DNA of 64,000 nucleotides, from assembly GCF_000026545.1 (NCBI RefSeq), contig NC_011601.1. One strand, 5' to 3'. Under the pieces are notes generated by a model. It was given only the letters and a program-made list of their open reading frames with translations. It was not told the origin of the DNA and searched no databases. This stretch comes from Escherichia coli O127:H6 str. E2348/69 (lineage in GTDB: Bacteria; Pseudomonadota; Gammaproteobacteria; Enterobacterales; Enterobacteriaceae). Of this stretch, positions 4,520 to 56,677 are shown one piece after another; position 1 is the stretch's first letter; each line of letters begins with the position of its first letter. The translations under genes were made by a program, and so were the position numbers.

Positions 4520-6802
4520 TCAGAAATGCATATTGGCCGTGAGCAGGAAGGTTCTTGGCTCGCCCGGGTGATAACGGTAGCCGCTCTTGTTGATTGAGGC
4601 GACGTAATCGGTATCAAACAGGTTGTAGACGTTTAGCTGGAAGTCGAGATTGCGATTAACCCGATACCCCAGTTTGGCATCGGCGACCCAGTAACCTTCG
4701 GTAAACGCTGGCGTTCCCACCGCGCCGTCTGAACCTTTATGCATACTGCCGATATACCGTGCGCCCGCACCAACAGAAATATCATCGGTTGCCTGATACT
4801 GGCTCCATAAGGTGAAGGCGTGTTCCGGGGTATACGGCAGCGATGAGGAACCATCCTGGGCAACATCTTTGCCGTTTTTGATAGTTGCTTTTTGCTGGGT
4901 ATAGCCGCCAATCATCTGCCATGCGGGGGTGATATTCCCGGCCACGGATATCTCGTAACCTTCGACACGTTTCTTACCATATTGCGAATAAGTCCCGTCA
5001 TCATTTTGCTCAACTTCATTTTCAATATCAGTACGGAACAGCGCGGCGGTAAGTAGCAGGCGTTTATCCAGAACCTGCCATTTGGTGCCAATCTCGCTGG
5101 TGTTGGCTTTTTGCGGTTTAAAATCGGTGCGGTTGGCACTGTTACCGCTGCCAGACTGCGCAAGGGCGAAGTTGTTGCCGCCCGGCGGCTGCTGGGAAAC
5201 GGCATAGTTAATATAGACATTGCCGTTTTCCGTCAGGTGATACAGCGCCCCGGCTTTCCAGTTCACCAGATTGCCCGACTTGGCGGTGTCGACGGTGGTG
5301 ACCGGAGAACCTTTTGCCACGCTAGCAGGGCAGGTGATGGCACCGCGCCCGCTGCCGCCGCAGGCGGTGGCACTGTCATATTCAGTATGATAATTATCCA
5401 GACGGATCCCACCGTTCAGCTCAAAATCACGGGTGATTTGCAGCGTATCGAAGGCATAAATTGCGAAGGTATCCGTCTGACCATTGGCGTTTGCGCCGTT
5501 GCGCGTCAGGCCGCCGGGATGAATGCTGCTGTCAGGATGATAAATATTTACCGCCGGTAACGTCACCGGATTAACGCCATAGTTAGTCTGTGTTTCGCGG
5601 GTAAATTCCACGCCGGTACTGACATCATGACCGATAGCGCCGGTATAGAACGTCGAGGTCAGGTTGGTCTGGTTGGTGAGAATTTTGTTACTCACATCTT
5701 TGGTATTCGCCGTGCGTGACCACGTCCAGCTATTCACATCGCTGGTGGGCTGGGTAATATTCGACGCTCCACCCATAATCGCCGTCATCAGGTAATCCTG
5801 CTTTACGCGCGACCAACGCGTAGTGTTGCGAATGGTGGTGTTATCGTTGATGTCGTGCTCAAAACGCATGGTAGCGGTGTCGGTGGTCGAATCGTCGTAA
5901 TCGGAATCCGTGCCGTAAAAGTTATGAGTATCAACTTTTCCGGAATGATTCAGGGCCGCTGTTCCCGCAGATGGGGCAGAATAACCCGGTAAACCGATGG
6001 TCGGAATGCCGCCGTCTGGCGTGTTGTGCTGGGTGACATGCAGATAATTAAGATACAAACGATTCGCTGTACCAAGGCCAAAAGCGACAGAAGGGGCGAC
6101 GCCGTAACGCTCATTTTTGACTTTGTTGCGTCCGGCATCGTGCGTTTTTTCGCCCATTACATTCAGGCGCACCGCAGTGGTATCACCAATGACCTGATTG
6201 ACGTCCAGCGTGCCGCGGCGGAACCAGGCGCTGCCAATACTGGCGGAGGCGTCAATGCCGGAATCATTGCGCGGCTGTTTGCTGATCATATTGATCGAGC
6301 CTGTCGGTGCGCTGCGCCCGTAGTCGGTGCCGGACGGCCCTTTAATTACTTCGACCTGCTCGGTATTGAAGGTGTCGCGCGAGACGCTGCCGATATCGCG
6401 AATGCCATCGATATAAATACTGTTAGAGGTATCGGCACCGCGCATATAAATGGCGTCGCCAGTGGTGGAGTTACCGTTCTCACCCGCAAAAAACGCACCC
6501 ACGCCGGGGACGTTTTTGAGCGCGTCGGTAAGGTTGGTTGCACCCTGATCTTTAATCACTTGTTCAGAAATCACTGTCATCGTGCGGGTAGTATCCGCTA
6601 CCGGACGCGAGAATTTCGGATCGGCAGATTTTTGTGGCGCATAAAGCGAAGGCGTTGATGCTTCGACAACCAGCGTGTCATCCGCGTTAGCTTGCCCTTC
6701 GGCAGCGAGTGCCTGTGCCACAGGCGTAATACCAATACAAAGACCGGCAAAGAACGTGAGCGAATGAAATTGTCTGGCAGGGAAATTGCGATTGTTTTCC
6801 AT
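4520..6802 (-). CDS. fiu: TonB-dependent catecholate siderophore outer-membrane receptor
   Basis: 760 aa; signal peptide; C-terminal ...NMHF with terminal Phe typical of TonB-dependent barrels. Confidence 0.95.
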
Positions 6803-7602: not shown

Positions 7603-8529
7603 ATGTCCGCCCAGAAACCGGGGTTGCATCCGCGCAACCGTCATCACAGCCGCTACGATCTCGCCACGCTTTGTCAGGTCAATCCTGAACTCAGGCAATT
7701 CCTCACGCTTACACCCGCCGGGGAGCAAAGCGTAGACTTTGCCAATCCGCTGGCGGTGAAAGCGCTCAATAAGGCGTTGCTGGCCCATTTTTACGCCGTA
7801 GCGAACTGGGATATCCCGGACGGTTTTCTCTGCCCACCAGTACCGGGCCGGGCGGATTATATTCATCACCTTGCCGATTTACTGGCCGAAGCAAGCGGAA
7901 CAATTCAAGCTAATGCCAGCATTCTGGATATCGGCGTTGGTGCGAACTGTATTTATCCGCTGATTGGCGTACATGAATATGGCTGGCGTTTTACCGGTAG
8001 TGAAACCAGCAGCCAGGCGTTAAGCAGTGCGCAGGCGATCATCAGTGCTAATCCGGGGCTTAACCGCGCCATTCGTCTGCGTCGGCAAAAAGAGAGTGGG
8101 GCGATTTTTAACGGCATCATCCATAAAAACGAGCAATACGACGCGACCTTGTGTAACCCGCCATTCCACGATTCCGCCACTGCGGCACGGGCAGGTAGTG
8201 AACGTAAACGCCGTAACCTGGGGCTGAACAAAGACGATGCACTGAACTTTGGTGGTCAGCAACAGGAGTTGTGGTGTGAAGGCGGTGAAGTCGCCTTTAT
8301 TAAAAAGATGATTGAAGAGAGCAAAGGCTTCGCGAAGCAGGTGATGTGGTTTACCTCGCTGGTATCTCGTGGTGAAAACTTACCGCCGTTGTATCGTGCT
8401 CTGACGGACGTAGGTGCGGTGAAGGTGGTAAAAAAAGAGATGGCCCAGGGGCAAAAGCAGAGCCGCTTTATAGCCTGGACCTTTATGAACGACGAGCAGC
8501 GCCGCCGTTTTGTCAATCGCCAGCGTTAA
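7603..8529 (+). CDS. rlmF: 23S rRNA m6A1618 methyltransferase
   Basis: Start trimmed to [10 protein letters not shown]... with AAGGAG RBS (308 aa); NPPF methyltransferase motif present. Confidence 0.9.
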
Positions 8530-10751
8530 AGCGTTGGCTCCCCCGGCGGCAACGGTTCAGCCGGGGCCGCGCCCGGAGCTGGCAGCACCTGATAAGTCTG
8601 TACCGGCGCGCGAACACCCGCCAGGTCGAAATGTTTTTTCACCTGGCTGTCGAGGGCAAAGCGGACCGTCCACTGTTTGAGTGGCAGCGTGGTGAACGAA
8701 ACACGCAGTGTAAACGCGGTATTGCTTAAGCCGACAATCCCGGCAAAGTTCGGTTCACCAATAACCAGCCCGCGAATTTCTTCGTTTTCCATCAATTCTG
8801 CTACCGCATCTTTCAGTGCCTGATTGGCTTTATCAGCATCTTCATGGCGATCAACATCGTAGTTTGCCACTACCGAACCAATACCGCGGACGAAGTTAGC
8901 AAAGGTGGTTATCGAAGACCACGGAATGATGTGATACGCCCCGGTATCCTGGCGCACGCCCACGGAGCGAATCGACATCCGTTCCACAGTGCCGGTCAAC
9001 GGCCCGATAGTCACCAAATCTCCAGTGTTCATGCCGTTTTCAAACTGAATAAATACTCCGGTAATAATATCTTTCACCAGCGTTTGCGAACCAAACGAGA
9101 TAGCCAGACCTAATGCCCCGGCACCTGCCAGCAATGGCGCGATATTGACGCCGATTTCCGACAACACAATCATGATGGTGATGGTACTGATAATCACCGC
9201 CAGCGCGTTACGGAACAGCGTCAGCAGGGTTCGCGTACGGGCGCTGGGTAGCGGGCGGCCATGAATATCCGAAGCCAGCCGGTTTTCTATCAAACTGGCG
9301 AGCACCGTCCAGCCAACCGCCGAGAAGAAAAGAATGAGTGCGATACGGATCAGGATATCTACGGTTTTCTGCCCCGCTCCGTTTTGCAGCCAGTTCCAGA
9401 AATCGAACAATCCCCATGCGCTCAACAGCAGCATTACCGCCACGCAGACTGTCAGAATACGCGCTGTTTTCAGTGCCGCCGAAAGCCATCCATTCAGCCG
9501 TTTTTGCAGCTCGGGATAGTTACGCTGAGTATGTGGCGAGAGAGTGATGGTTTTCGCCAGCCAGCGGGAAAACATACCGGAAACAAATGCTGCGATACCA
9601 ATAATCGCCAGGCTGCGCACCGTTGCACCCATCATAAATTTCAGGCTGTTGCCCGGATCGAACAACGAAAAGAAAAACAGCACGATAAAATAGGCGCTTG
9701 CCAGCCAGTGCCACACCAGCGCAAAGGCGCGGATAAACAGGCTGAAAAAGGCCAGCGAATGCTCCGCAAAGTTGAGCAAATGCTGGGTGATCTCTTTTTT
9801 ATTACGAAAAATCAGGTACAACGCCCAGACGGTCATGCACAGCATAATGATGACGTTTGCCAGCGCACCTATCTGTACATTCACCTGATTAGAGATAATC
9901 GGCACAGCCACAATCAGACCATAGCCAATCAGGCTGCTTAACCAGCTCAGGCGACGACTCCAGTAACGGGCGGTCTCGTCATGAATCGTGAACGGGCGCA
10001 GTTCAGCTACGTTTGGGCAAAAAATCAGGCGTAGTACGGCTTTGAAAAATTCAATCAGGGCAAAGGCGTTGAGAAACAAACTTTGTTGGAAAGCGATGGT
10101 GCGACTGCCCGCATTCAGGTTGTCGCTTAATACCTGGCCGACAAATAATGTCAGTGCCAGTAACAGCAGGTCGATAATAAACGCCCCGATGATCATCGCC
10201 GGAAGCTGCAACCAGTTACTGCGCTCACGATTTTTTTGCCGCGCCCACTGGCCCATTTTGCGATACAGCGGCAGTGCGCACAGACGAATCAGCCAGTAAA
10301 AACCAAACACTAATACCGCTAACATTGAAAAGTGGGTCAGCGCATTGCTGAAGGTTTGTGGATTAAACGGCTTATGCGGGGAGCCGGTGATATTGCGATA
10401 AAGTTGCCCGAAGCGGGCGGAAAGGGCTTCACCATAATGGCGGCTGACTTCGGTGACTTTTTGCAGCACGGTTTGCTCTTCAACCAGCGTCGGCGGCACG
10501 ATCTTCGGTACGGGTTCCGCAGGAGGCGTAGCGGCGACGGTGCGCAACTGGTCGATCAACTCTTTACGCGAGGTGTCATTATCCAGCACATCCGCCAGTG
10601 CGCCATAGGCCGCTTTTTTTTGTTCGATATCCGGTTCCGGGGCCGGTTCAGTCGTTGAGTCCGTTGTCGTTGTGGTTGTAACGCCGGGTATGGATACCGC
10701 GTGGGCAGGTGCGCCCAACAGGCAGAAGAGGATGAACAGGATCCACCGCAT
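8526..10751 (-). CDS. ybiO: MscS-family mechanosensitive channel
   Basis: Start trimmed to MRWILFILF... (741 aa); signal peptide, multiple TM helices, MscS-like C-terminal domain. Confidence 0.9.
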
Positions 10752-10867
10752 GACTCCTCCAGTGAGAAAACAGAGCAAAAAGATAAGTATAGATGCTGGA
10801 GGCTGGGCGATTTTAAATGAGAGGAATCTGGTGTGCCTCCCTTTCGGGGGAAAGGGAGGCAGAGAAG

Positions 10868-11590
10868 TTAAGAGACGTGCTGCAAAAATTCCTGCAAGCG
10901 CTGGCTCGGCGGGTTCTTGATCAACACCTGCGGATCGCCATCTTCTGCAATCCGGCCTTTGTCGATAAAGATCAGGCGCGAAGCTACTTTCTCGGCAAAA
11001 CCGATTTCGTGGGTCACGATCACCATCGTCATCCCTTCTTCAGCCAGATCCTGCATAACCTTCAGCACTTCATGGCGCAGTTCCGGGTCAAGAGCGGAAG
11101 TCGGTTCATCAAACAGCATCATTTTCGGCTTCACCGCCAGCGCGCGGGCAATCGCCACACGCTGCTGTTGACCACCAGAAAGTTCGGAAGGGTAGTGATG
11201 TGCACGCTCTGCCAGACCGACTTTCGCCAGCAGCTCACGCGCCAGTTTTTCCGCCTCTTCTTTATTCGCGCCACGCACGCGTAGCGGGCCAAACATGACG
11301 TTTTCCAGCGCCGTCAGATGCGGGAAGAGGTAAAACTGCTGGAACACCATACCCGCTTCCTGGCGAATCAGGCGCTCATCAACTTTCGGATCGTTAACCT
11401 TCAGGCCATCGACAATCAGATCGCCGGAGGTGATTTCTTCCAGTTTGTTGATGCAGCGCAGCAGGGTCGATTTACCGGAACCGGACGGCCCGATAATCAC
11501 CACGACTTCGCCCTGAGCAATGTTCAAATCGATATTGTGCAGCACCTGGGTTGGACCAAAATGCTTGGAGACGTTTTTAAATTCAATCAC
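10868..11590 (-). CDS. glnQ: glutamine ABC transporter ATP-binding protein
   Basis: 240 aa; Walker [13 protein letters not shown] signature LSGGQQQR, Walker [13 protein letters not shown]. Confidence 0.95.
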
Positions 11591-12246
11591 AGGATTTTCA
11601 TCCTTCTTTCCAGACGACGCAGAATAAAGCTCAGCACCAGGGTAATAATCAGATAGAACACCGCCACGGCGCTCCAGATCTCAAGGGCGCGGAAGTTACC
11701 GGCAATAATTTCTTGCCCCTGACGGGTCAGTTCCGCCACGCCGATAACAATAAACAGCGAAGTGTCTTTAATGCTGATGATCCACTGGTTACCCAGCGGC
11801 GGCAGCATACGACGCAGTGCCAGCGGTAAAATGACGTAGCGAATGGTTTCCCAACGTGAAAGACCGAGCGCCAGTCCTGCTTCACGAAAACCTTTGTGAA
11901 TAGACAGCACCGCACCACGCGTGATTTCCGCAATGTACGCGCCGGAGTTGATCATGATGGTGACCACCGCCGCAGTAAACGGGTCGATGCGTAAATCGTT
12001 AAACGCCATCGGCAGGGCGAAATAGATAAACATCACCTGGACGACGATAGGTGTGCCGCGGATCACTTCAATAAAGACCAGCGCGACGTGGTTGGCTATC
12101 CAACCACCGAAGGTGCGTGCAAAACCTGCCAACAATCCGATCACCAGACCGCCAGCCAGACCGAGGACCGAAATCCACAGGGTCATTTTGGCACCTTCAA
12201 TCAGAAGCGGAATGGCAGGCCAGATGGCACTCCAGTCAAACTGCAT
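11587..12246 (-). CDS. glnP: glutamine ABC transporter permease
   Basis: 219 aa polytopic membrane protein; overlaps glnQ start by 4 nt. Confidence 0.95.
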
Positions 12247-12387
12247 ATGTTGTTCCTGTTACCGTGGTGTAAATAATCAAATTCAGGGTAATTAATGGCC
12301 CCGGAGCGGGTTTGCGCCCTTCACCCTAATCCTCTCCCCGGCGGCGGGGAGAGGGAACTGCCAGTGCGCTTTACAGGCGCAGCGTTA

Positions 12388-13149
<762 letters not shown>

Positions 13150-52445: not shown

Positions 52446-53498
52446 TTACGGGGTAATGCCAACCGCTGCCGCCACTTTGTCGCCACTTGGCAGCGTTGCC
52501 AGAGGATTGAAACGGAGCGCCGTTTCCAGATGATCCGGTGCCAGATGTGCGTAACGCATAGTCATTTTTATATCGTGGTGTCCGAGAATTTTTTGTAAAG
52601 CCAGAATGTTTCCACCCGACATCATGAAGTGCGCCGCAAACGTATGGCGCAGAACGTGTGTGGGTTGACCGCGAGGGAGCACGATAGACGTTTTTTCCAT
52701 CACGGATAAAAATTGAAAATAGCAGTCTGTGAAGAAATTGAACCCATCAAGCGCCATGATCTCTTCGTAAAGCTCTTTACTGATAGGGATGCTTCTGTTT
52801 TTCTTCCCCTTCGCTCTTACAAAGGTAATTCGGTATTTGGTCACCTGTGAGCGGGTAAGATTTACGTCTTCTCGCCAGCGTGCGCCTGTGCTTAAGCATA
52901 TCTTAACTACCAGTGCCAGAATTGGGTCCTGACGTTTGCAATCAGCTAGTAATTCAACAATCTGCTCATGGGTAAGCCATGCCATCTCTTTTTCTGCGAT
53001 GGTGAATTTTCGCATGTTCTCCAGTGGGTTCGGATACGACCATTCGCCCAGGCGGGATAGTTCGCTAAAAACACTACTTAGATAGCTTTGCTCCAGGTTA
53101 ATGGTGACCGGGCTTGCTCCTTTCTTCCATTTCTCACTGAAGTAGATCTCACCTGTCAGGCGTTTATCTCGATAGTGGGCAAACATTTTAGAGGTTAGAT
53201 CAGTTGCAAGGGGATTGCCCAGAGCGTCAACCATCAGCAGCAATTTGTCATAGACATGCTGCCCAGCAGTCAGAGATTTACCATGTAGTTTGAACCATAG
53301 CTCAACCACGTCTTTCAGTGTTCGACGATCCACTGATTCACCCAGCCAGGGCTTTGCTTCGGTTTCTTCCATCGTGTGACGCTCAAAAGCCAGTGCTTCG
53401 CCTTTGGTGGCGAATTGTTTACGCACACGACGCCCACTACGTCCGGCGGGGTAACATTCGCAAAGCCATTTTCCTGTGGTGAGTTTTCGTACTGCCAT
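52446..53498 (-). CDS. int: phage integrase (tyrosine recombinase, P2/186 type)
   Basis: 350 aa; N-terminus MAVRKLTTGKWLCECYPAGRSGRRVRKQFATKGEALAFE and catalytic-domain motifs (LSTGARW, LRHTFAAHFMMSGGNILALQKILGH, MRYAHLAP) match recalled 186 Int. Confidence 0.9.
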   Translation of the reverse strand: MAVRKLTTGKWLCECYPAGRSGRRVRKQFATKGEALAFERHTMEETEAKPWLGESVDRRTLKDVVELWFKLHGKSLTAGQHVYDKLLLMVDALGNPLATDLTSKMFAHYRDKRLTGEIYFSEKWKKGASPVTINLEQSYLSSVFSELSRLGEWSYPNPLENMRKFTIAEKEMAWLTHEQIVELLADCKRQDPILALVVKICLSTGARWREDVNLTRSQVTKYRITFVRAKGKKNRSIPISKELYEEIMALDGFNFFTDCYFQFLSVMEKTSIVLPRGQPTHVLRHTFAAHFMMSGGNILALQKILGHHDIKMTMRYAHLAPDHLETALRFNPLATLPSGDKVAAAVGITP

Positions 53499-53584
53499 AA
53501 TAAAGCCCTCATATCAGAGGGCTAAATTTAACTGTATGTTTGACCAGTGGTCAATGTATGGTTTAGTTTATTCAAACAATGCTT

Positions 53585-55102
53585 TTAATCAAATGATGTG
53601 GCCAGTTCAATTAATTCAATGTAATTATGTAAGGCATAAAAAGATGTATTCAGACCATTCTCTATAAGGGCTCCTTGCAAATACTTTATAGCTGTATCAC
53701 CATCAATAGGGCCTTGTTGAGATATAATCATTAGTGAATTTTGCCCATTGTTTTTTATACTTGATTTAAGCATGTTTATATTATTAATAAAATACAATGC
53801 AACATCTAAGTAATTTATTAATGTTAAATTTATTTTGGGCTCAATCTGTGAGATGAATAATCTACTGCTCGCCGTTCTATAGATATAATTGACACCTATT
53901 CTTTGCTGATTTGTATCAAGATTTAATTCAAGGATGGCTTGAGAAACACCTTTTAAATTGGAGCTTTGCTTTATCGAATCAGTGAAACGTTGTGCTGCAT
54001 TTCTTCGACCAATTAGTCCATCTATAATTTGACGTTCCTTATCATATATAATCATTAGCGAAATTATAAAAATATAATCTACTTTCTTTTTGACTAAATC
54101 AGATTTAAGAATGTCTATTAACCTTTCAGTATTTCGGATTGAGTCTCTTAGATTTAACCCAAATGCTTCAAATACGTTGGAAATATTTATTGAAAAGTCT
54201 TCTAATGTTGCTGTTAGTGGGTGTGTTTTTGATGTGATATTTTCAAAATCGGTACCAATATAATCACCAACAACACCATTAATTAAATCTTTAAGCTCAG
54301 GTTGTTTTAAAGTAAATCTTCTATGAAAAAAACGGCCTAAATAGTCATTTGCGGAAAAATCATTACCGTAAACATTCTTGATTGAATGTTGTAATTGATC
54401 TGTGTCAGTAGCAATAATAAAGACAAAATTTTTAATATCGAATATATGTTTAACAATCTCTAAAAGAGAAATTGCATAATCTGGCCTGCATCTGTCTAAT
54501 TCATCTATAAAGATAAATATAGGACATGAAAAACTATTTTCATATGCCAACCTAGACCATAACGTTAGTTCTTTTTTTAATACCTTAATGCTCTTCAGTT
54601 TTTCCTGGTGTTCCTTCAGCATTATTAATGAGGCTTCTTTGGCTATATCACCTACGTTATCTACTCCTGCATAAGTCTTGATTAGGCCAGATATGATTTC
54701 AGGTAGAACACCTTTTGTAAAGCGTCCGATAGCATGGCCGCTTTGTATCAATCGAGCATCAAGTTTTCCTGCATATGTTTGCAATTGTTGTGACAAAGAA
54801 GAAAAAAGGGTTAAAAATGCATCATCAGAAAAGTCTTGCTTCCAGGCATCAATGTAAACGCATGGGTGTGCATCTTTTATTGAGTTATAAAATCTCTTTA
54901 TGAAAAAACTTTTACCAGCTCCCCATTCTGCATTAAGGTTGATTACCGTGTTGTTCTTTTGCCCCTTTTCCTTAAGATAAAAATATAGATATTCTGCATA
55001 GTGTCTCCGATTAAGTTTGTCTTTGGAAAGAATTTCCTCTTCGTCGTCTAATATAAAGGTAGTTTCTTCATCCCAGTTCCAATTACAATCACCACATTTC
55101 AC
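53585..55102 (-). CDS. KAP-family P-loop NTPase (prophage cargo; candidate anti-phage protein)
   Basis: 505 aa; GTG start with GGAGA RBS; Walker A AEWGAGKS (res 58-65) and Walker B IFIFIDELDRC typical of KAP NTPases; long Asn/Ile/Lys-rich C-terminal region; AT-rich. Confidence 0.7.
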   Translation of the reverse strand: MKCGDCNWNWDEETTFILDDEEEILSKDKLNRRHYAEYLYFYLKEKGQKNNTVINLNAEWGAGKSFFIKRFYNSIKDAHPCVYIDAWKQDFSDDAFLTLFSSLSQQLQTYAGKLDARLIQSGHAIGRFTKGVLPEIISGLIKTYAGVDNVGDIAKEASLIMLKEHQEKLKSIKVLKKELTLWSRLAYENSFSCPIFIFIDELDRCRPDYAISLLEIVKHIFDIKNFVFIIATDTDQLQHSIKNVYGNDFSANDYLGRFFHRRFTLKQPELKDLINGVVGDYIGTDFENITSKTHPLTATLEDFSINISNVFEAFGLNLRDSIRNTERLIDILKSDLVKKKVDYIFIISLMIIYDKERQIIDGLIGRRNAAQRFTDSIKQSSNLKGVSQAILELNLDTNQQRIGVNYIYRTASSRLFISQIEPKINLTLINYLDVALYFINNINMLKSSIKNNGQNSLMIISQQGPIDGDTAIKYLQGALIENGLNTSFYALHNYIELIELATSFD

Positions 55103-55127: not shown

Positions 55128-56051
55128 TTAATGTAAACAACTTATAATAACTTTTGCAATAAACTCAATGTCTGTAAGCGAACATTCAAAAGAGTGATTT
55201 TGGGATGAAATATAAACTCGTCCTTTAGGTAGTCGAGTTATCATTCTAAATGAATTCTCTCCATCAATATTTACTAGCCACTTACCATCATGTACATCTT
55301 TAAAACCCATTTCACATATTAATTCAGAGTCTTCGGTAGATACTACGAATGCATTTTTTAAATTGGAAGGTAGAAAGCATGGGTCAAATAAATATGAGCC
55401 ATCATTTATTAACTTGCCATTGATTAATACTTTTTTCACTAATGTTAAAGTATCTTTATTTTTTGCGTTTTTCATTTCTCCTGTACCAAATGAAATCCAT
55501 TCAATAGAATGGCCCGTTTCTATTGCACACTGCAAAACCCAGTCTGCAGGAAAAATGTCACGCATGTATCGTGTGGCTAATGTGCTTTTTGAAATACCTA
55601 GGTGATCAGCTAATGCTTGGCGCGTTTTGTAACCGTAAGCCTCGACAATTCGTTCTATTGTTGCCTTACCCCCTCGGTTAAAATTCATGAGTTTTTCATT
55701 ATCGAACTTTATAGTGGGAATGTATACTTCATTGCAAAGGCCATTAACGGCATGTTTTTCAGAATATTGCTCTGATGAAGGAGCAGTATCTGAACCAAGA
55801 ACTAACCATTCAATTGATGCTCCTGTTTCTATGGAACATATAACAACCCAATCTGCAGGAAAGGTATTACGTGCATATCTGTTGGCCATAGTACTTTGGG
55901 AAATACCTAGATGATTACATAATGCCTGTCGTGACTTGAAGCCATAGGCTAGGAGTATACGCTCAATAACTTTTTGCCCTCCACGATTCTGCATAACTAT
56001 TGCTTTCAGATCGTTTTTGATATGGCTAAATTTTAATTTTTGAGTTGACAT
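55128..56051 (-). CDS. CI-like repressor paralog with tandemly duplicated N-terminal DNA-binding domain
   Basis: 307 aa; residues ~20-85 and ~120-190 are two copies of the domain (IERxxxAYGxKxRQALxxHLGISxSTxAxRYxRxxFPAxWVxxCxxETGxSxxWL) found once in the adjacent CI; C-terminal domain is paralogous to the CI C-terminus. Start could alternatively be the Met at residue 20. Confidence 0.75.
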   Translation of the reverse strand: MSTQKLKFSHIKNDLKAIVMQNRGGQKVIERILLAYGFKSRQALCNHLGISQSTMANRYARNTFPADWVVICSIETGASIEWLVLGSDTAPSSEQYSEKHAVNGLCNEVYIPTIKFDNEKLMNFNRGGKATIERIVEAYGYKTRQALADHLGISKSTLATRYMRDIFPADWVLQCAIETGHSIEWISFGTGEMKNAKNKDTLTLVKKVLINGKLINDGSYLFDPCFLPSNLKNAFVVSTEDSELICEMGFKDVHDGKWLVNIDGENSFRMITRLPKGRVYISSQNHSFECSLTDIEFIAKVIISCLH

Positions 56052-56101: not shown

Positions 56102-56677
56102 TTACTCAAAGTACTTAACTGTTATGCTTATAATTTTTCCAATAATTTCGATTTCTTCTTTTTTACATTCGAAAGCCCTATTTCCACCTTCAACTAAGAT
56201 TCTTCCACCAGGTAAACGAGTGATATCGCGGATTGTTACTTCGGCATCAATACTTATTACCCATTTGCCGTCACGAATATCGTTAAACTCTTTATCGCAA
56301 ATAAAAACGGAATTGTTATCGGTGATTACAAACGGATTTTTGAGCGTAGATGGTAGAAATTCTTTATCGAAAATATAAAAACCATCTTCCTGCAAGGTTC
56401 CATCAGATAATACATATTTAACGACTTCCATAGTATTTGTATTACCTGAAGTTTGCTTTGAACCATGTCCGGTCGTGAGCCAGTTAAGCGAGGCGCCCGT
56501 TTCAAGTGCGCACTGGATTACCCATTCAGCAGGGAATGAGTCACGCATATAGCGTGTGGCGAGAGTACTTTTAGAGATTCCTAAGTGATCGCACAACGCC
56601 TGTCGAGTCTTGAAGCCATATGCTTCTACCATGCGCTCTATAGCGCCTCGTCCGCCTTTCTCCAAACTCATGGTCAC
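56102..56677 (-). CDS. cI: prophage immunity repressor CI (186 type)
   Basis: 191 aa; divergent from the apl/cII operon; N-terminal domain resembles recalled 186 CI (...AYGF...CALETGA..W..TG); start may be the ATG at 56671 instead. Confidence 0.75.
   Translation of the reverse strand: MTMSLEKGGRGAIERMVEAYGFKTRQALCDHLGISKSTLATRYMRDSFPAEWVIQCALETGASLNWLTTGHGSKQTSGNTNTMEVVKYVLSDGTLQEDGFYIFDKEFLPSTLKNPFVITDNNSVFICDKEFNDIRDGKWVISIDAEVTIRDITRLPGGRILVEGGNRAFECKKEEIEIIGKIISITVKYFE

Follow-up and report, generated by a model that had tools for sequence, protein, structure and literature searches.

Membrane helices are typical of many members of the KAP family of P-loop NTPases. They are not obligatory in this family, and PifA has none; PifA causes depolarisation and nucleotide leakage, and for Tmn the turnover of ATP has been reported as the mode of action (PMC13001434). 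EF_KAP defends against phage in a manner that depends on its Walker B motif and that was reported as non-abortive (PMC12632615). Protection against siphoviruses is conferred by 'Reve', a stand-alone KAP gene located in a P4 hotspot, and the same preprint on P2 and P4 names KAP_NTPase as one of the accessory domains of P2 (10.64898/2026.02.27.708500). Here we describe a KAP protein encoded in a 64 kb stretch of DNA from Escherichia coli O127:H6 E2348/69, which equals positions 800001-864000 of NZ_LT827011.1 (this whole stretch is referred to as the window, and coordinates given without a locus or accession are positions in it). The gene occupies positions 53585..55102 on the minus strand and belongs to a 186-like prophage inserted beside rcdA. 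Judging from its genomic context and its profile matches, we predict with moderate confidence that the protein defends the lysogen against phages. The protein itself is already correctly named in RefSeq, its family is already listed as a candidate in PADLOC, and experiments in other lineages have established single-gene KAP defences. What is distinctive about the case reported here is the absence of any visible effector, the restriction of the family to a single slot in a single phage lineage and the existence of a natural allelic series.

The open reading frame (ORF) of 505 codons is real, since the chance of so many stop-free codons at the base composition of this gene is 3e-19, and the longest stop-free run in 500 shuffles comprised 145 codons. 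Its coordinates are identical to those of the RefSeq protein WP_000649630.1, annotated as "KAP family P-loop NTPase fold protein". The gene starts with GTG, with GGAG ahead of it, and the N-terminus of the product aligns with those of its homologues. In Pfam, the KAP_NTPase domain (PF07693) was identified in residues 32-293 (E-value 1.2e-45, 156.5 bits, model positions 1-248 of 293). PADLOC searches revealed matches to four profiles of PDC-S20, the best of which covers residues 20-389 (E-value 5.1e-78), with the remaining three scoring between 6.5e-47 and 4.7e-26. Weaker PADLOC matches, limited to the NTPase core, were found for PifA (E-value 9.4e-17) and QatA (E-value 6.9e-14). NCBIfam yielded nothing but a sub-threshold match to QatA, and PHROGs places the protein in an unannotated family. 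No packaging or replication ATPase family competes with KAP in the Pfam, PADLOC and RefSeq annotation. A preliminary description of this DNA had assigned the protein to the KAP family by its Walker A and Walker B motifs; both are present, and Pfam, PADLOC and RefSeq agree with the assignment. Walker A (AEWGAGKS, residues 58-65) is encoded at 54908..54931 and Walker B (IFIFIDELDRC, residues 195-205) at 54488..54520, both on the minus strand. In 45 homologues, residues W60, G61, G63 and K64 of the former and I199, D200, E201, L202, D203, R204 and C205 of the latter are invariant, and the two motifs are kept across homologues that have diverged to about 31–35% identity. Judged by its sequence, the 505-aa protein is a KAP-family P-loop NTPase with intact Walker motifs.

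The AlphaFold2 model of the protein, built on 45 homologues, has a mean predicted local distance difference test (pLDDT) score of 83. Between Walker A and Walker B it places a helical bundle of ~95 residues (residues about 95-190, encoded at 54533..54820 on the minus strand), with helices at residues 95-111, 116-129, 132-143 and 150-188; around residues 120-160 of this insertion the pLDDT score is 47-66. The most hydrophobic part of the insertion is a conserved, proline-kinked stretch (residues about 126-146). The insertion takes the site at which some P-loop NTPases bear membrane helices, and the preliminary description had suggested that such helices be looked for; in this protein the insertion is predicted to be soluble. 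The highest mean Kyte-Doolittle hydrophobicity over 19 residues of the KAP protein is 1.43 and falls within a core beta-strand. A membrane-helix value of 1.6 is reached in the insertion by none of the 116 close and none of the 51 distant homologues. We therefore rejected membrane helices in the P-loop insertion, as they are found neither in the KAP protein nor in these 167 relatives. Among solved structures, RdrA from RADAR comes closest, at a sequence identity of 10–13%. We could recognize no effector domain in the KAP protein.

The remainder of the protein had been described as a C-terminus of ~250 aa with low complexity, rich in Asn, Ile and Lys. Our analysis contradicts this view: residues 294-505 show the abundance of Ile, Leu, Asn and Ser that AT-rich DNA predicts, their Shannon entropy is 3.9 bits and they contain no repeats. 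They align across the whole family and are predicted to form a compact alpha/beta domain with high confidence (pLDDT 91, predicted template modelling score 0.88). Accordingly, a low-complexity C-terminus was rejected. We found no solved structural relative of the C-terminal domain. It comprises a hypervariable part (residues 345-488, encoded at 53639..54070 on the minus strand), which we propose to be a specificity or sensor region, and a conserved tail (residues 489-505, encoded at 53588..53638 on the minus strand; 'YIELIELATSFD'). The tail carries the motif Y-x4-E-L, in which E499 is invariant and conservation reaches at least 90% at Y494 and L500, and its regional identity is 0.44–0.50. Mean pairwise identity is 0.60–0.65 in the NTPase core and 0.19 in residues 345-488. 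In the closely related allele at locus L026, all nine amino-acid differences fall at residue 285 or beyond, with synonymous changes spread along the gene, although these numbers are small. Across loci, the mean pairwise identity is 0.51 for the KAP protein, 0.55 for the phage repressor CI encoded upstream of it and 0.80 for the integrase encoded downstream (int), and the rate of divergence of residues 345-488 is close to that of the immunity repressor. A profile search of 1.84 billion representatives retrieved the C-terminal domain in 79 clusters, exclusively in proteins of KAP length or in short, probable fragments, and a fusion of this domain to other proteins was rejected, because the search gave none. 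Since the domain is restricted in this way, we regard it as a variable domain specific to a small KAP family that has no recognizable effector.

Analysis of the genomic context reveals that the KAP gene lies in a slot between cI and int. Reading the minus strand after rcdA, one finds int, the KAP gene, a gene for a CI-type protein of 307 aa and the cI gene for a repressor of 191 aa; facing these genes, on the plus strand, are the apl, cII, fil and replication-endonuclease genes of the prophage. Homologues with 79%, 62%, 52% and 34% identity occur in the same cI-KAP-int order, all in 186-like prophages, which belong to Klebsiella (according to the protein name), Enterobacter, Serratia and a second lineage of E. 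coli. The latter carries the 34%-identical allele (E. coli W, NC_017664.1, 958306-959757) in the same cI-int slot and at the same rcdA site; this allele was found in 12 of the 5426 complete E. coli genomes (E. coli W and its derivatives, with one record labelled "DH5alpha"). A relative of the KAP protein is encoded on 343 viral contigs of IMG/VR, and at each of the 29 best loci the KAP gene has cI on its upstream and int on its downstream side, all in one orientation. At L010 and L050, the KAP gene and the gene upstream of it touch or overlap at their start and stop codons. The only constant neighbours of the KAP gene are cI and int of the phage itself. Further homologues come from Pectobacterium, Serratia and Rahnella associated with plants. 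Across Enterobacterales, full-length homologues occur almost exclusively in the cI-int slot of 186-like prophages. More distant relatives share only the NTPase part and are found in other viral contexts, on plasmids of other genera, or alone in chromosomes.

The slot between cI and int is not reserved for the KAP gene. Its flanks (int or cI) were matched in ~1100 of the 5426 complete E. coli genomes, 16 of which possess this KAP module, while the others carry different cargo, in agreement with the earlier suggestion that the gene is prophage cargo. In the commonest arrangement, exemplified by BL21(DE3), cI and int are separated by an ORF of 63 aa. The cI gene and switch region of the E2348/69 prophage are ~90% identical at the DNA level to those of BL21-type prophages that have this cI alone. 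Comparison of the junction between int and cI across prophages shows that the flanks (the int leader and cI) are conserved and that the cargo between them differs. Two isolated phages, vB_EcoM-813R9 and KP12, have in this slot a gene of 558 aa, annotated as "chromosome segregation ATPase" (L103, 5136-6812; L104, 5137-6813), which matches the defence system PD-Lambda-1 (E-value 3e-120). PDC-M11, a PADLOC candidate composed of protein A and the ASCH-domain protein B, is found in the slot at L020 (8125-9547) and L027 (6982-8410), and the slot of L017 holds a DUF4747 gene together with a gene of 201 aa that matches no defence profile. In L027 the KAP gene is followed by a fragment encoding the 115-aa N-terminus of the integrase (5518-5865), then by a second cassette and only then by the full int, which looks like a trace left by recombination in the 5' part of int that stacked one cassette on another. 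Thus, the cI-int slot of 186-like prophages is a variable defence hotspot. A hotspot between cI and int has been described in P2-related (K139-like) phages of Vibrio (PMC9122126).

The KAP gene has a G+C content of 0.319 (0.249 at third codon positions), far below that of int (0.485), gpA (0.53) and the flanks (about 0.5), as was noticed in the preliminary description. The AT-rich stretch reaches past the KAP gene into the 307-aa repressor gene at 55128-56051 (G+C 0.355). The low G+C content had been taken to indicate recent horizontal acquisition, and our data do not support this interpretation: the homologues in the same slot, at 34–79% identity, all have a G+C content of 0.30–0.34, and therefore it is a lasting trait of the family and not a sign of recent arrival.

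The prediction of a role in defence is supported by the match to PDC-S20, by the presence of PD-Lambda-1 and PDC-M11 in the same slot of other elements and by the existence of other single-gene KAP defences. The KAP gene would be co-transcribed with cI from the lysogenic promoter, as the gene order suggests, so that lysogens would contain the protein without induction. The hypervariable C-terminal domain could then recognize a protein or an activity of the incoming phage, and recognition may permit NTP-dependent oligomerisation, by analogy to the heptameric ring of RdrA and to STAND/NLR proteins. The assembled NTPase would halt the infection with no need of a fused enzyme. This output would most likely be reached by a PifA-like lesion of the membrane or of the energy supply, possibly via the proline-kinked element, or by a Tmn-like runaway consumption of ATP. 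The output is the weakest step of this scheme, and we have much less confidence in these particular routes than in the overall prediction of defence. Several observations weigh against the proposed function. We found no experiment in the literature on the KAP protein or on any member of PDC-S20. The protein has no membrane-spanning segment, which makes a membrane mechanism speculative. Transcription from the lysogenic promoter is deduced from gene order, and promoter-like consensus matches in the region are at chance level (16, compared with 16.0 expected from shuffles); on this basis an internal promoter of the KAP gene was rejected. Some distant relatives, for instance in Pseudoalteromonas, stand alone in chromosomes without defence neighbours, and our search of a collection of isolated phages yielded five weak partial matches and no full-length homologue.

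The KAP gene of E2348/69 is accompanied by a second repressor. The 307-aa CI-type protein (cI', 55128..56051, minus strand; PHROG 4 repressor, E-value 3.8e-75, three matched stretches) is intact and consists of two helix-turn-helix domains and one CI C-terminal domain, and its gene adjoins the KAP gene, 25 bp upstream. The short-form cI of 191 aa (56102..56677, minus strand; PHROG 4, E-value 1.2e-44), located beside the apl/cII switch, forms the right flank of the slot and is the resident immunity repressor. The prophage thus possesses two complete repressors in tandem. Residues 122-307 of the longer protein are 69% identical to the CI protein of Klebsiella that directly precedes the 79%-identical KAP homologue. 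Long-form CI proteins of ~310 aa with a duplicated DNA-binding domain are widespread in E. coli, Salmonella, Klebsiella, Citrobacter and Enterobacter, and in L017 (6001-6942) and L020 (6001-6951) such a protein is encoded as the sole repressor beside apl at the same rcdA site. Most probably, this arrangement arose when a cI'-KAP cassette was brought in beside the resident cI. The second repressor might render the lysogen immune to a second group of 186-like phages. Divergence of the KAP protein and that of CI are weakly correlated across pairs of loci (Spearman 0.37), and these pairs are not independent; hence we did not rely on co-inheritance of cI and KAP.

These observations invite a bolder version of the defence hypothesis, in which the KAP proteins of 186-like prophages would form a distinct class of immune sensors without an effector, the fast-evolving C-terminal domain, with a fold not seen before, detecting the invading phage and the KAP ring itself being the weapon, and the cI'-KAP pair would be an "immunity plus defence" cassette. 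The ring would cause a membrane lesion without a true membrane helix, by means of the proline-kinked element, or it would exhaust ATP; a recipient prophage would gain a second 186-like immunity group together with an abortive defence. We consider this combination rather unlikely. The second repressor is also the starting point of a different explanation, namely that the KAP protein serves, jointly with this repressor, in a narrow exclusion of superinfecting P2/186-like phages instead of acting as a broad abortive sensor. The arrival of the KAP gene with an extra intact repressor in E2348/69 speaks for it, as does the weak co-divergence mentioned above, with the same caveat of non-independent pairs, and a hotspot system of the P2-like phage AC1 restricts P2 itself (PMC9122126). 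Nonetheless, in most loci the upstream CI is the only repressor of the prophage, which indicates that KAP and CI are not a dedicated pair, and the KAP proteins studied experimentally act on unrelated lytic phages (PMC12632615; 10.64898/2026.02.27.708500). We find this explanation unlikely.

The position of the KAP gene between repressor and integrase in the lysogeny operon, conserved over deep divergence, could alternatively mean that the protein serves the life cycle of the prophage, i.e. integration, excision, or the maintenance or induction of lysogeny, the more so as STAND- and ORC/Cdc6-like ATPases can act on assemblies of DNA and protein. Such a function is difficult to reconcile with the dispensability of the gene: among the ~1100 E. 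coli genomes with int or cI flanks, only the 16 with this allele and the 12 with the E. coli W-type allele contain it, and unrelated genes, among them named defence systems, take its place in the slot of other prophages. Moreover, a single fast-diverging domain fits conflict better than phage housekeeping, and we regard a life-cycle role as quite improbable. Little probability can likewise be given to the idea that the gene acts in toxin-like addiction or in host physiology (stress tolerance or virulence of enteropathogenic E. coli) and has no phage target. It would account for AT-rich accessory cargo in a pathogen with no identifiable effector or partner, and genes related to toxin-antitoxin systems or to arsenic resistance do occur beside int elsewhere (SocA_Panacea in L002, an ars operon in L005). 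On the other hand, there is no constant antitoxin-like partner, and the family matches profiles of defence candidates. The gene is carried by strains of human, canine, porcine, river-water and food origin, which do not represent one pathotype, and plant-associated bacteria possess homologues as well. Very low G+C is typical of H-NS-silenced DNA in E. coli. This and the rarity of the gene in the species would suit an inert passenger, silenced or decaying, which is nevertheless very improbable, since none of the 16 genomes and none of five IMG/VR copies has a disrupted reading frame, the catalytic motifs remain invariant at about 31–35% identity and the C-terminal tail is conserved, all of which requires purifying selection.

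If the KAP protein indeed defends the lysogen, it will provide a compact and tractable case of a KAP ATPase that stops phage without a fused enzyme or a membrane anchor; how this is achieved is a question that has stood for PifA over decades. PDC-S20 would be raised from a database candidate to a real system, and the junction between cI and int in 186-like coliphages would become a place to seek defence genes. The alleles found in one slot at 34–79% identity (E2348/69, E. coli W, Klebsiella, Enterobacter and Serratia) offer material for the mapping of specificity. In practice, prophage genes of this kind shape the response of enteropathogenic E. coli and Klebsiella to therapeutic phages. If the protein has no role in defence, little is lost, as only about 0.5% of complete E. 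coli genomes contain the gene.

The left flank of the slot is formed by the tyrosine integrase gene int (52446..53498, minus strand; PHROG 1 integrase, E-value 1e-71). Its product is 88–97% identical to the integrases encoded beside KAP homologues in E. coli, Klebsiella and Enterobacter, and 56–80% identical to those of Serratia-type loci. Alignment with the prophage of BL21(DE3) shows that homology with E2348/69 ends ~60 bp upstream of int, within the spacer between KAP and int (53499..53584, minus strand). The ~60 bp nearest to int, which are kept as a leader in prophages with other cargo, thereby mark the left edge of the slot. Inside this conserved leader, a GC-rich hairpin (AGCCCTC-N6-GAGGGCT, 53504-53523, minus strand) abuts the ATG codon of int and may control its expression. 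The co-oriented genes cI, cI', KAP and int are separated by gaps of 50, 25 and 86 bp, and no terminator was detected before int. Within 51.5-58 kb we found neither non-coding RNAs nor meaningful repeats.

A few neighbours of KAP genes in other loci deserve mention. Directly upstream of KAP, a protein of 160 aa is encoded at L038 (2310-2792), L050 (3504-3989) and L012 (7470-7952); its C-terminal half is weakly BRCT-like (Pfam E-value 0.055), and it matches PDC-S48 (E-value 5e-7). The gene is present in a subset of the prophages and in a chromosomal locus of Pectobacterium, and its product may be an accessory or regulatory partner of KAP in that clade. In L002, whose KAP protein is named by NCBI as that of Klebsiella pneumoniae, the SocA_Panacea-domain gene and a gene of 249 aa (7878-9100) lie between int and the host flank; the same position is taken in L005, from Enterobacter, by an arsRBC operon (10822-12916).

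PDC-S20 is a computational defence candidate, and a full-text literature search for "PDC-S20" returned no experimental report. A search on the P2-like prophage of E2348/69 gave no matches, and KAP is unmentioned in DefensePredictor and the other discovery papers covered by our search, which did not extend to Brenes and Laub 2025 or the original KAP paper of 2004. The KAP protein resembles PDC-S20 in being a single-gene KAP NTPase with no obligate partner, as reflected in the E-value of 5.1e-78 for the best profile, but this profile misses the last ~115 residues, i.e. the hypervariable part of the domain. The likeness to QatA is limited to a KAP-type ATPase with local similarity around Walker B (the PADLOC match at 6.9e-14): the NCBIfam score of 43.4 bits compares with a cut-off of 600, and QatB, QatC and QatD are not encoded nearby. 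RdrA, the nearest structural relative, forms a heptameric ring, but it is a protein of ~800 aa that works with the adenosine deaminase RdrB, and the KAP locus contains no RdrB partner.

With PifA the KAP protein shares the KAP fold, the lack of membrane helices (PMC13001434) and, if our prediction is correct, the character of a single-protein determinant on a mobile element, which in PifA acts by abortive infection. However, the match to PifA is limited to the core (residues 26-274 of the KAP protein and positions 15-262 of 720 in the profile), and the C-terminal regions are unrelated and of unequal length. A tblastn search of 72,556 plasmids (E-value ≤ 1e-3) gave no Escherichia among the genera listed or tallied and no match covering 80% of the query. 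We therefore rejected PifA as a close relative, there being no full-length homology and no Escherichia among these plasmid genera. The defence precedent that the preliminary description drew from PifA is thus a remote one, as the relationship is confined to the NTPase core. The triggers of PifA (gp1.2 and gp10 of T7) and its membrane phenotype should not be transferred to the KAP protein by assumption.

The location also permits a comparison. The well-studied P2 hotspot of E. coli adjoins cos, unlike the slot described here, which resembles the hotspot of K139-like phages of Vibrio in being a short variable slot with conserved phage flanks and interchangeable defence cassettes (PMC9122126). 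EF_KAP differs from the KAP protein in its two N-terminal membrane helices and its origin in Firmicutes (PMC12632615), and Reve in its location in the psu-int hotspot of P4 (10.64898/2026.02.27.708500). Compared through the domain they share, EF_KAP, Reve and the KAP protein of E2348/69 are alike in consisting of a single KAP polypeptide with a C-terminus of no known fold, encoded on a mobile element.

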